A stretch of DNA of 64,000 bases from an uncultured bacterium (GCA_963834265.1 CAWIAU010000001.1:588346-652345), one strand, 5' to 3'. Positions 30,278-55,365 are shown, numbered from the stretch's first letter. Notes: generated by a model not told the origin, from the letters alone. Numbers and translations are program-made.

Positions 30278-30283
30278 ATAAGT

Positions 30284-30398
30284 ACTCTTTCGGGGTTGGG
30301 TGCAAGTCCCAATCGGTGGTTACAGCCCACGAGTTGCCTGGCAACACGATTTGGTGAAATTCCAAAGCCGACCGTATAGTCGGGATGAAAGAAAGAGT
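30284..30398 (+). promoter_or_regulatory. FMN riboswitch (RFN element) aptamer
   Basis: P1 pairs ACUCUUUC (30284-30291) with GAAAGAGU (30391-30398). Conserved RFN blocks are present: GGGGUUGGGUGCAAGUCCCAAUCGGUGGU, GAUUUGGUGAAAUUCCAAAGCCGAC and AGUCGGGAUGAAAGAAAGA. It lies upstream of ribBA. Confidence 0.85.
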
Positions 30399-30426
30399 GC
30401 AGACGCTTTTAATTGTGTATGCATAT

Positions 30427-31684: not shown

Positions 31685-32770
31685 ATGCAAAATTCTGATA
31701 TTAATTTCATGAAACAAGCCCTGAAGCTGGCGCGAAAAGGTATGGGTAAGACATACCCCAATCCCCTTGTTGGCGCTGTTATAGTAAAAAATGACCATAT
31801 TATTGGTTACGGTTATCACAAAAAAGCCGGAGGCCCGCATGCCGAAATATATGCTATTAATTCAGCAACAAAGAAACTGCAGGGCTCAACTATGTATGTA
31901 AATCTCGAGCCGCATAGCTATACTGGCAAAACGTTGCCGTGTACAAAAGCAATTATTGCCACTGGTATCACAAGAGTAGTTTGTGCGACCATGGATCCCA
32001 ATCCAAAAGTTCAGGGTGATGGCATTAATCAGCTCCGGAATGCAGGTATTGAAGTACTGACCGGCATTCTTGAGGCAGAAGCATGCTTGCTTAATGAACA
32101 GTTTTTTACATTTCATAAAAATAAACGCCCTTTCATTGCTGTCAAATACGCAGCAAGTCTCGACGGGAAGCTCTCGACAAATAACGGCAACTCCAAATGG
32201 ATTACAAATGATGCTGCACGTGCATATGGGCGCAAACTGCGAAGTAAGTATCAGGCAATTCTGGTCGGGATCAATACTGTGATTGCAGATGATCCGCATC
32301 TTGGCACCCGACAAGTATACAAATCTGATCCCATACGGATTATTCCTGATTCAGAACTGCGCATTCCCATAAACGCTCAGGTTTTGCGTGATAAGAATGT
32401 TCTGATTGCTACCTCGTCTTCCGCGCCGGCGGCAAAGAAAAAGCAACTTATAGCTAAAGGTTATAATGTTGTGAATTTCGACGGCCCCCGTGTACCTATA
32501 AATAAACTTATGACTAAACTATATGAGCTGAATATCATCAGTGTGCTGATCGAGGGAGGCGGAGAAACCATAGGAGAATTTACAGACCAAAAATTGATTG
32601 ATAAGGTGTACGGATTTTATGCACCGATACTCATTGGCGGTAAAAACTCTGTGTCAATTGGTGGCAAAGGCATAGCCAATATTTCAGAAGCTCTTCAAGT
32701 CGCGCGACCACGGATCAAACGATTTGATGATAATTTCCTGATCGAGGGATTAACTAAAAACAAGGATTAG
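31685..32770 (+). CDS. ribD: Diaminohydroxyphosphoribosylaminopyrimidine deaminase / 5-amino-6-(5-phosphoribosylamino)uracil reductase
   Basis: Deaminase HAEIYAI ... LEPHSYTGKTLPC plus a C-terminal reductase domain (KYAASLDGK). Confidence 0.93.
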   Translation: MQNSDINFMKQALKLARKGMGKTYPNPLVGAVIVKNDHIIGYGYHKKAGGPHAEIYAINSATKKLQGSTMYVNLEPHSYTGKTLPCTKAIIATGITRVVCATMDPNPKVQGDGINQLRNAGIEVLTGILEAEACLLNEQFFTFHKNKRPFIAVKYAASLDGKLSTNNGNSKWITNDAARAYGRKLRSKYQAILVGINTVIADDPHLGTRQVYKSDPIRIIPDSELRIPINAQVLRDKNVLIATSSSAPAAKKKQLIAKGYNVVNFDGPRVPINKLMTKLYELNIISVLIEGGGETIGEFTDQKLIDKVYGFYAPILIGGKNSVSIGGKGIANISEALQVARPRIKRFDDNFLIEGLTKNKD

Positions 32771-33264
32771 TAAGGACAGACTTTCGTAATTGTTTTAGAT
32801 TGTACGGGTTGAGAATCCTGCACCAATGCATGAGTTTCCCAATATACTTTACTGGCTGTTGTCTGCTTTTCGTCGCCCGGGAAAGGCGGACTGCCAGGCC
32901 CGATCCATGTATCGAGTATTTCATAATTCCCGTCTTTGTCCTGCTCCAAAGCAATAGTAAGTTTGCTGCTTGGTAGAGGGTATCGGTTTTTGGCATAACG
33001 CGAATACACTTTTTTCTTGGGGGGTTGCGCGTAGAAAATAATGTCTTTTTCGCTGGTCTCTACAATGTCTGTATTGCCGATTACGCGGCCCATATCGTAT
33101 TCTATGAATAATTCTGACTTACGCAGATCTTGTGTTGCCAGTGCTTCTTTTACGAGATTGATCATGTATGGCTGGCGACTAAGGCACTGACCGGCCGGAG
33201 ACTCTATAAAGTTAACATAAACTTCATATCCATGTGCTGACCGTGTAATAACAAATTTATACAT
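32767..33264 (-). CDS. Hypothetical protein (165 aa)
   Basis: GAGGAG lies 10 nt upstream of the ATG. I recognise no family. Confidence 0.6.
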   Translation of the reverse strand: MYKFVITRSAHGYEVYVNFIESPAGQCLSRQPYMINLVKEALATQDLRKSELFIEYDMGRVIGNTDIVETSEKDIIFYAQPPKKKVYSRYAKNRYPLPSSKLTIALEQDKDGNYEILDTWIGPGSPPFPGDEKQTTASKVYWETHALVQDSQPVQSKTITKVCPY

Positions 33265-33322
33265 AAACTTCTTACTCCTCAGTATACGCTTATTTATAGG
33301 TAATAGCGATTACAAATAAGGC

Positions 33323-33489
33323 TATATAGAACTTTCGCACTTTCCCACAGCCCCGGAACTCATCTGAGCTGCTGCAAATTGCCCATCTTCTCTCAATGTA
33401 GCTACGGCTACCCCTCCGGAAGCTGAACAATTTTCGCTAAACCCAGGCTGACCTCCGGAATCCATGTCAAAGTGCGAAAGTTCTATATA
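33323..33489. repeat. 21-bp perfect inverted repeat pair enclosing a 125-bp core
   Basis: TATATAGAACTTTCGCACTTT (33323-33343) is the exact reverse complement of AAAGTGCGAAAGTTCTATATA (33469-33489). Confidence 0.9.
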
Positions 33490-33498
33490 CTGGATAAC

Positions 33499-33948
33499 AT
33501 GAAAATAAAGATTGAGCTTGTCCGCGCAATTGGCAGTGAATTTGTAAACCGTAAGCTGAAGTCAATCGTAATAGTTTTTGGGGTCATCGCACTGATCAGC
33601 CTGATCCTGACAGTATGGCTGGCAACAATAAGCGCATGGTGGCTGCTTCTGTTACTTCCCTTCCTTATTTTTACGATGCTTGGCTTTCTGGCAGGTCTGG
33701 CGGCAAGAGTGGTCATTAAAACGTTACGTCCCGAGCTAACGCGATCTCAAAAAACCGATGTAGGAAACTTCGTTGATAAGCTGGAGCGCGTCGCCGAAAA
33801 TATTCAGACTCCTATGTTCATCATTGTCTTTCGTGTAGTACGCGATATTATCCGCCCAGGTGAAAGAACTTTTGTCCGGTCTGTGGCCAAAGACAGCACC
33901 ACGCTGCATAAGGATTTCTCTGAACTTGAGCAAAATTTCAAAAACTAA
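33499..33948 (+). CDS. Small membrane protein, unknown function
   Basis: Two adjacent hydrophobic helices. I prefer the ATG at 33499. The listed upstream GTG at 33472 lies inside the inverted-repeat arm. Confidence 0.6.
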   Translation: MKIKIELVRAIGSEFVNRKLKSIVIVFGVIALISLILTVWLATISAWWLLLLLPFLIFTMLGFLAGLAARVVIKTLRPELTRSQKTDVGNFVDKLERVAENIQTPMFIIVFRVVRDIIRPGERTFVRSVAKDSTTLHKDFSELEQNFKN

Positions 33949-39305: not shown

Positions 39306-39380
39306 TGGCTGGGGAGGAGGGATTCGAACCCCCGAATGCCAGTACCAAAAACTGGTGCCTTACCACTTGGCCACTCCCCA
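39306..39380 (-). tRNA. tRNA-Gln (anticodon UUG), CCA encoded
   Basis: The 75-nt sequence UGGGGAGUGGCCAAGUGGUAAGGCACCAGUUUUUGGUACUGGCAUUCGGGGGUUCGAAUCCCUCCUCCCCAGCCA folds as a cloverleaf. It has a U1-A72 pair, the anticodon loop UUUUGGU, and close resemblance to bacterial tRNA-Gln. Confidence 0.93.
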
Positions 39381-55106: not shown

Positions 55107-55335
55107 CATCACCTCTTTCAGAGGAAATTCCAAAGTTTGAACGTCAAAGTTCAAAGCTCCGGAATCATTATTATTTGTTTAAAGCATACAGTCGACCACT
55201 GCAAGCCATTCGTTACCACTAAAAAAGCCTTTGGCTTCCCAAAGACTAAGATTGCATTTCAGAATTAACTTCTTATTGCTTCCTCGGCGACATTATCAGG
55301 GCTTTCGCTCGTCGCTGTCTTCGGTAACTTACTCC
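55107..55335 (-). promoter_or_regulatory. Long structured 5' leader of rplJ-rplL (candidate L10-type autoregulatory leader)
   Basis: About 225 nt lie between the promoter and the start codon. This stretch contains GGGAAGCC-AAA-GGCUUUUUU (55221-55240), which looks like an attenuator, and a UUUGAAC-UUUGAC-GUUCAAA hairpin just before the SD. Confidence 0.45.
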
Positions 55336-55365
55336 ACTATACACCTTAAATATCGATAAGGTCAA
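55336..55365 (-). promoter_or_regulatory. Promoter for rplJL (TTGACC-18-TATAGT)
   Basis: On the minus strand, the -35 lies at 55360-55365 and the -10 at 55336-55341. Confidence 0.55.

Follow-up and report, generated by a model that had tools for sequence, protein, structure and literature searches.

A stretch of 64,000 nucleotides from an uncultured bacterium (GCA_963834265.1, CAWIAU010000001.1:588346-652345), referred to here as the window, contains at positions 33323-33489 a 167-bp unit enclosed by inverted repeats. This unit is a copy of a previously undescribed, non-coding repeat family of Saccharibacteria, which is most probably a family of MITEs (miniature inverted-repeat transposable elements), mobile now or in the past, whose members have inserted into the TATA of promoter -10 boxes. 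The family has the attributes associated with MITEs, in that its members are short (167 bp here, well below about 600 bp) and non-coding, possess terminal inverted repeats (TIRs), are flanked by a short duplication and exist as many dispersed copies. Mobility is further supported by nested and decayed copies and by orthologous sites that are free of the element. An insertion of this kind was among the explanations offered by an earlier sequence-only reading of the same DNA, and it is borne out by these features.

The repeat family and its ends

In the window the two 21-nt arms, 33323-33343 (left, TATATAGAACTTTCGCACTTT) and 33469-33489, are 100% complementary and stand 125 nt apart, exactly as had been described from the sequence. 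When up to three mismatches are allowed the arm 21-mer is found at just these two sites within the 64 kb, and in none of 100 shuffles. The core is richer in GC (about 0.50) than the neighbouring intergenic DNA (0.29-0.39), a difference that had likewise been noticed correctly. The symmetry extends beyond the arms, since the entire 167-nt unit is an imperfect palindrome that folds as a nearly unbroken rod. Comparison with its relatives suggests that the element proper would be 159 bp long (33327-33485), with perfect 17-bp TIRs at 33327-33343 (TAGAACTTTCGCACTTT) and 33469-33485 (AAAGTGCGAAAGTTCTA), each the complement of the other, and with a TATA target duplication on either side, at 33323-33326 and 33486-33489. 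The left boundary is drawn from homology with subfamilies whose flanks are not palindromic, and the right TIR from arm complementarity and paired copies; with GGAC replacing GAAC, the left TIR bounds 49 paired copies elsewhere.

The unit is not unique, which settles the copy-number check that had been suggested for it. In the genome collection the arm 21-mer matches three loci of a groundwater metagenome-assembled genome (MAG) of Candidatus Saccharibacteria, JACOTW01, and AAAGTGCGAAAGTYCTATATA matches 65 metagenome loci, chiefly on groundwater and microbial-mat contigs. Three copies lie on a single 106-kb contig. An exact 21-mer in a coding region of Clostridium vincentii was set aside as a chance match, the partner arm being absent there. 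Among the loci that were fetched (566 kb in all, cited below by L numbers), 49 arm pairs are spaced 165-168 nt apart, with a mode of 166, and these comprise 32 unique sequences. A covariance model (R1) built from the 32 unique copies and run on the fetched loci and the window finds approximately 86 non-overlapping copies in the 566 kb, most of them exactly 166 nt long, and only one in the window. The densest loci hold up to five copies in 13 kb (L056) and four copies in 6 kb (L027). The family is specific to Saccharibacteria/Saccharimonadales; BLAST of the unit against plasmid and phage collections gave no match, and the arm was not found when viral contigs were scanned.

Many of the copies found by the model have other termini, such as CACGCCTTTCGCAC..., CCCGACTTACGCA... 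and CTGGACTTACGCA..., with several more besides, yet the subfamilies share a common length (mostly exactly 166 nt). The TIR sequence is TAGGACTTTCGCAC, with variants among the subfamilies, each of the other subfamilies having matching arms of its own. Common to the subfamilies is the centre, which on the better-folding ('sense') strand, corresponding to the minus strand of the window, reads GCGAAAAC ... GAGAGG-GUAGC-CAUA-GCUAC-AUCGAGAG ... GUUUGCAG. The arms hold a direct repeat, AAAGT-N3-AAAGT, and within subfamily A they are far better conserved than the core.

The copies are dispersed singly among unrelated flanking genes, namely housekeeping genes and tRNAs, with several copies on one contig and many at contig ends. 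Truncated copies occur at L039, L055, L046 and L047, and at L034 two elements abut on one TATA. Genes for tRNA lie 8-50 nt from element copies at L002:1587-1658, L011:8920-8991 and L056:12147-12220. A 341-nt composite at L008:640-980 consists of a family-A rod into which a second rod, with AGAGCTAAATTACATCTATCCGTTA... termini, is inserted just 3' of the apex, and both rods carry the apical hairpin GTACCCATAGGTAC. Some otherwise normal rods, 186-201 nt in length (L015:7073-7261, L020:1737-1937, which is the same as L062:210-410, L021:27-212 and L034:5352-5538), contain a 20-nt GC-rich mini-palindrome (CCTGCCTGCCGGCAGGCAGG and variants) once or twice at a fixed internal loop, which suggests a further, very small repeat family lodged within the main one.

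Several observations concern the way in which the copies have been assembled. When assemblies from related microbial-mat samples are compared, a given flank of a copy is seen with differing partners (L010/L045, L016, L053, L025 and L059); the cause is either recombination among copies within the population or chimeric assembly at the repeat. Seven independent contigs end within an element copy, 40-113 nt upstream of the adjacent gene (L083-L088, in their first 28-100 nt, and one Logan contig), and six independent assemblies break within the copy at the pheS locus described below. Fragmentation of the assemblies of these genomes by the repeat, or by its hairpin, is systematic.

The boundary between element and target was established from the subfamilies. 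Copies of subfamily A end as TATA-TAGGAC ... GTCCTA-TATA, and because TATA is itself palindromic the window copy alone cannot tell an extension of the inverted repeat from a duplication. Alignment of the arms across subfamilies places the four end positions outside the repeat, and where these are not palindromic they are found to be direct, not inverted, repeats. Six such copies have perfect 4-nt direct repeats, the target-site duplications for which a check had been suggested: two are flanked by TAGA on both sides (L014:4022 and L027:1792), and four belong to subfamily A2, where the repeats TAGA (L016:5649), CAGA (L056:4641), CAGT (L014:613) and TAAA (L061:5521) are displaced by a constant 1-nt offset. 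Copies with flanks from two contexts, whether recombinants or assembly chimeras, have mismatched tetranucleotides, as is expected. Overall, the family prefers T/C-A-G/T-A targets (TAKA/CAGW).

Probable insertion at -10 boxes

The right-hand TATA of the window copy, together with the two bases that follow it, makes up the hexamer TATACT (33486-33491, plus strand), the predicted -10 box of a gene for a 149-amino-acid (aa) membrane protein (33499-33948, plus strand). The box is reported by a promoter scan as ATGTCA-16-TATACT (33464-33491), it agrees with element-free orthologues, and the ATG follows 7 nt beyond it; the TATATA to which the sequence-only reading had drawn attention does end 9 nt before this ATG. 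In the public protein record (P0121, NCBI/ENA) the gene product is 158 aa long, which corresponds to a start at GTG 33472, inside the repeat arm. Homologues of 147-150 aa favour ATG 33499 instead and, since the 158-aa frame also contains the -10 box, ATG 33499 is the likely start.

Three orthologues of the 149-aa gene, in which the model finds no element, have the promoter sequences GGCTATACT-9-ATG, TATACT-6-ATG and TATAAT-6-ATG. The window reads GTTCTA|TATA|CT-7-ATG, and when the element and one TATA are removed this becomes aaGGC-TATA-CT-7-ATG. The reconstructed empty promoter, GGC-TATA-CTGGATAACATG, has the same box as the orthologues at about the same distance from the ATG, and its GGC is also present in the closest of them (ccGGCTATACT). 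A second locus, identified by the synteny trehalase-yajQ-...-pheS-pheT, is filled in L081 as gtttgc|TATA|element|TATA|AT-10-ATG, and is empty in the pheS orthologues L089 (cttgtTATAAT-7-ATG) and L090 (gatgaTATACT-10-ATG). Three or more divergent genomes have a filled pheS site, and the element there is found both ways round (L001 and L019 as against L031/L081); either the site is a hot target that was struck more than once, or an old insertion has inverted between its arms. The empty sites were obtained by protein-guided look-ups and not from the fetched repeat loci, among which BLAST of the joined flanks returned filled alleles only.

The position is not peculiar to these two loci. Gene starts lie 8-14 nt beyond the arms at many loci. 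When the hexamer formed by the duplication and two flanking bases is considered at 111 unique element ends, 21 have an ATG-initiated long open reading frame (ORF) no more than 12 nt past it, and 13 of these 21 hexamers fit TA[TG]ANT (mostly as TATAAT or TATACT), compared with 23 of the 90 at the remaining ends.

These findings suggest how the window arrangement may have arisen. The element would have entered the TATA within TATACT, the box that serves the 149-aa gene. Duplication of the target on insertion would have kept this -10 box intact, the gene-proximal copy of TATA and the native CT restoring TATACT 7 nt before the ATG. The inner arm would now supply the upstream promoter DNA, including ATGTCA as a -35-like hexamer. 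At the other end, the distal TATA and the first TA of the element could form a second -10-like sequence, TATATA, facing into the element. For the family as a whole, the preferred targets are found mainly, in these genomes, in predicted -10 boxes lying 6-10 nt before the starts of what would be leaderless or short-leader genes.

In the Saccharimonadales genes that were examined, TATAAT or TATACT is found 6-10 nt before the ATG with no Shine-Dalgarno sequence between them (L078:1985-2003, L079:1989-2003, L080:1989-2003, L089:1488-1503 and L090:1485-1503). Such a short distance between -10 box and start codon suggests that leaderless or near-leaderless mRNAs are widespread in Saccharimonadales. 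By the same token, the 149-aa gene is probably leaderless or has a very short leader.

For the gene on the other side of the element, which encodes a protein of 165 aa (32767-33264, minus strand), a TATATA box in the repeat arm upstream had likewise been pointed out. The gene has a -10 of its own, TATACT within GTATACT (33281-33286, minus strand), which lies outside the element and between it and the ATG, and GTATACT is found 16-22 nt before the ATG both in the window and in the element-free orthologues L072, L074 and L076. In view of this conserved box the left arm was rejected as the promoter of the 165-aa gene. The 165-aa protein is without a Pfam domain and has 226 homologues of about 165 aa, 60-73% identical, in Saccharimonadales or Patescibacteria; it represents a conserved, lineage-specific protein.

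A rod conserved on one strand

The core of the window copy (33344-33468) forms the rod, with the minus strand as the sense strand. Across the family the interior is predicted to fold as a rod of about 80 bp, capped by a 5-bp hairpin with a GA dinucleotide on either side; hairpin and dinucleotides are both conserved. In the window the apical hairpin lies at 33398-33411 (minus strand; sense GUAGC-CGUA-GCUAC); it covaries and is the part most widely kept across subfamilies. The two GA dinucleotides are unpaired and are the best-conserved positions in an alignment of 50 copies from all subfamilies. On the 5' side of the hairpin (sense G74 A75; 33415-33416, minus strand) A75 is invariant, one of only two such columns in the alignment, and G74 is at least 90% conserved; on the 3' side (sense G96 A97; 33393-33394, minus strand) both bases are at least 90% conserved. 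The two dinucleotides face each other across the helix and could possibly form tandem G.A pairs.

Two sequence motifs that had been singled out in the window turn out not to be features of the family. The plus strand does contain the hairpin GTAGC-TACG-GCTAC (33398-33411) with its UNCG-type loop, but the loop type is not conserved, the plus-strand UACG occurring only where the sense loop is CGUA, and most copies having CAUA. Similarly, CCGGAA is present three times in the window copy (33353-58, 33416-21 and 33455-60) but is absent from most other copies; two of the three pair through their CCGG, and other copies differ in sequence there.

The fold itself is well supported by covariation, which had been proposed as a check. 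RNAalifold, applied to the alignment of 32 copies, gives 48 pairs, 30 of which have compensatory double changes. Paired cells amount to 95.8%, as against 84.2% in column shuffles (none of 500 as high), and fall to 35-46% when the partners are slid by 1-3 columns. The apical stem illustrates this well, occurring as GUAGC/GCUAC, GUACC/GGUAC, GUAAC/GUUAC, GUAUC/GAUAC and GAUGC/GCAUC.

The two strands are not equivalent. For the window copy the RNA fold energy is -84 kcal/mol (z = -9.5) on the minus strand and -61 kcal/mol (z = -7.8) on the plus strand. The strand that corresponds to the window minus strand gives the better fold in every one of the 32 subfamily-A copies and in 58 of the 59 unique copies when all subfamilies are taken together, with mean values of -85 versus -65 kcal/mol and with 6.5 versus 1.5 G.U pairs per copy. 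Alignment A1 contains G.U at 26 positions (138 cells) against A.C at 8 (12 cells), although the alignment structure was derived from the sense strand and the per-copy folds are the fairer test of G.U content. The asymmetry also holds with DNA parameters (-40.9 versus -31.3 kcal/mol), so that on this evidence RNA and single-stranded DNA look alike. The compensatory changes, combined with wobble pairs (G.U or G.T) on one strand, point to selection on a single-stranded form of the sense strand, be it RNA or DNA, a feature that a plain MITE model does not explain.

This brings together the points that weigh against reading the family as MITEs. The strand asymmetry has no place in plain double-strand cut-and-paste transposition, and across subfamilies the length is fixed and conservation is stronger in the centre than at the termini, the reverse of what would be expected if a transposase recognised the ends alone. 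No pairs of arms 0.7-4 kb apart and enclosing a gene were found in the window and the 566 kb of loci, and neither the window, nor these loci, nor the viral collection yielded an autonomous element combining matching termini with a transposase; arm-like motifs 0.25-4 kb apart also yielded no autonomous partner. The genomes with empty sites are 50-77% identical in protein and not isogenic, so no insertion event has been caught directly. The A2 data fit a 3-bp duplication equally well, and for A2 the duplication is best given as 3-4 bp; its length in the window (2, 4 or 6 bp) is judged from homology with other subfamilies. Set against the dispersed copies, the duplications and the occupied -10 boxes, these points still leave a mobile repeat as the preferred reading.

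The main alternative is that the rod is a functional structured RNA made from the window minus strand, the family being primarily a multi-copy RNA gene or a cis-acting module, which could coexist with mobility. This is a possible but distinctly less likely reading. Candidate roles for it are those of a substrate for RNase III, of a stabiliser or processing site at the 5' end, and of a protein-binding RNA with a GA-motif apex. It would account for the fold and the wobble pairs being confined to one strand, the compensatory changes, the unpaired GA dinucleotides being the best-conserved nucleotides and the centre being kept across subfamilies whose termini differ. By crude ORF-based gene calls, with some loci redundant, 47 of the 58 cases that could be scored have the start of a divergent gene adjoining the sense 5' end, which would fit divergent transcription from the symmetric TATATA. 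The same calls have neighbouring genes reading into the antisense side (25) more often than into the sense side (11), which argues the other way, as does the occurrence of both orientations before pheS (L019 versus L031/L081). The promoter scan and reading of the sequence revealed no internal promoter or intrinsic terminator in the element, the element in the window has no match in Rfam 15 at E values up to 10, and no Rfam match at gathering score falls on the element either in the window or in 100 kb with at least 25 copies. Moreover, the asymmetry appears with DNA parameters too, and duplication, decay and nesting are the behaviour of a mobile repeat and not of a gene. SRP RNA, 6S RNA, retron msr/msd, Y RNA and ribozymes were considered individually and dropped, given the lack of a model match and the copy number. 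Of the structured RNA of about 167 nt that the sequence-only reading had envisaged, the structure itself has stood up through covariation and strand-specific wobble; its being an RNA has less support, in that it has no recognisable promoter or terminator of its own and single-stranded DNA would serve as well.

A related proposal, which is improbable, is that the element moves or is maintained by way of a single-stranded DNA hairpin and that the asymmetry marks the strand that is processed, in the manner of REPINs and RAYT, of palindromic elements derived from IS200/IS605, or of attC sites. The strand-specific fold with DNA parameters agrees with this, and the hairpin spanning the whole element, its compensatory changes and its better-conserved landmarks resemble REPINs. 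Short target duplications are present here, however, and neither HUH/Y1 elements nor attC recombination are known to make them. The ends contain neither a GTAG-type REP head nor a GTTRRRY core site, and the copies stand singly before housekeeping genes rather than in cassette arrays.

More generally, it may be, though the chance is well short of even, that the rod is selected as a single-stranded nucleic acid, either as an RNA acting on neighbouring genes or in trans, or as a strand-specific DNA or RNA intermediate of an unrecognised mode of transposition. In the first case an RNA with a GA-motif apex would be made by divergent or read-through transcription from the colonised promoters; in the second, the mobilising protein would recognise the conserved centre rather than the termini. 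It is only jointly that these two versions reach that degree of likelihood.

It is very unlikely that the arms are operator or promoter modules through which a shared regulator acts on two divergent genes, with the core as a mere spacer. Such modules might be seen in the good conservation of the arms relative to the core in subfamily A, in their AAAGT-N3-AAAGT repeats and in the nearness of gene starts to them. They are hard to reconcile with one site in the 64-kb window and up to five in 13 kb elsewhere, with unrelated housekeeping genes and tRNAs as flanks, and with subfamilies that have quite different arms around the same core. Downstream of the arm the 165-aa gene uses a conserved -10 that belongs to it, the -10 lies at the same distance in element-free orthologues, and the core is structurally constrained and no neutral spacer. 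TATA does stand at both ends, as the idea of duplicated promoter modules had it, but as a duplicated target taken from a pre-existing -10 box and not as an operator. A general promoter or regulon motif was also rejected, there being one site in 64 kb.

The ATG-initiated 47-codon ORF noticed on the minus strand (33322-33465) exists, but as a gene for a small secreted or modified peptide it can be dismissed as a chance open frame, since its start codon is kept in only 2 of 32 aligned copies, ATG-initiated ORFs of at least 40 codons occur in just 6 of 59 copies and in differing places and frames, the ORF has no Pfam match, and substitutions track base-pairing and not codons.

Elsewhere in the window, matches above the Rfam gathering threshold mark three ordinary features, an FMN riboswitch before ribBA-ribD (30282-30400), a tRNA-Gln(UUG) gene (39306-39380) and a ribosomal protein L10 leader (55212-55342).

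Significance and comparison with known systems

In kind the element is an ordinary one, a probable MITE; what deserves attention is its density in some lineages of a phylum with genomes of about 1 Mb, its targeting of promoters and the structural conservation of one strand. Saccharibacteria have genomes of approximately 1 Mb with very little non-coding DNA, and in the sampled contigs of some lineages a 166-bp repeat recurs at intervals of 2-3 kb, placed in the -10 boxes of genes for housekeeping functions and for tRNAs. The family may offer a natural system in which to see how promoter-rewiring mobile DNA is tolerated, or put to use, by a reduced genome. It accounts for the breaking of assemblies of these organisms upstream of genes. 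At least one start codon is reassigned through it (from 158 to 149 aa), and it provides a sequence and structure model with which the repeats can be masked or annotated. The conservation of a rod of about 80 bp on one strand could lead to an RNA function or to an unusual transposition intermediate. No literature on MITEs or comparable repeats in Saccharibacteria was found.

Among known systems, IS5 has some likeness in its termini. When the arms of subfamilies A and A2, in which (G)GAAGGTGCGAAAG occurs, are locally aligned to E. coli IS5, they match best exactly at the IS5 terminal repeats, GGAAGGTGCGAA(T/C)AAG. For two arm variants only 0-1 of 300 shuffles align as well, and for the arm of the window itself 19 of 300 do, so that the latter does not rise above shuffles. 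The IS5 group makes 4-bp duplications. In contrast to IS5, the polarity is reversed, with the IS5-like tip pointing towards the core and not the flank (window 33469-33489 and L056:4641-4806, compared with L070, which is E. coli IS5A 956-2150), and a tblastn search with E. coli InsH detected no IS5-like transposase in the window and the 566 kb of loci. The likeness may be coincidence or convergence and is retained only as a lead.

REPINs are inverted doublets of REP sequences mobilised by RAYT. They are extragenic, present in many copies and form a hairpin of about 100 nt from the whole element; compensatory changes maintain this hairpin, the elements persist for long periods at orthologous sites, and the substrate for their movement is thought to be single-stranded. 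The Saccharibacteria family differs in having target duplications and classical-looking TIRs and in lacking a GTAG head, and no RAYT gene was seen in the loci, which is not a genome-wide search. Strand-specific folding is also shared with the attC sites of integrons. The termini here are nevertheless TAGGAC...GTCCTA and not RYYYAAC...GTTRRRY, and the copies are single, lie before housekeeping genes in both orientations and form no arrays.

Closest in architecture is the Correia element (CREE, or nemis) of Neisseria, and the likeness is one of architecture only. CREE starts with TATAG, and the start of the window element, TATA-TAG, is much the same. CREE is approximately 105-157 bp long and non-coding, with TIRs and a conserved directional core, makes a short target duplication at a TA-containing site and has many copies just 5' of genes (PMC2649163). 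In its 'Black promoter' a partial -10 at the end of the element is completed by native sequence, and in its 'Snyder promoter' an inward-facing -10 lies in the first six bases; CREE transcripts fold as hairpins that are bound or cut by RNase III (PMC2649163). Promoter activity and RNase III cleavage are experimental findings for CREE, and for the present family they would be predictions. The Saccharibacteria family belongs to another phylum and has no sequence similarity to CREE when its arms and core are compared with the published CREE ends (PMC2649163). The duplication is of 4 bp (TAKA/CAGW) here and of TA in CREE, and no IHF-like site was recognised in the core of the family. Set beside CREE, the Saccharibacteria elements are distinguished by a centre common to all subfamilies, a length fixed at 166 and pairing that is conserved on only one strand.

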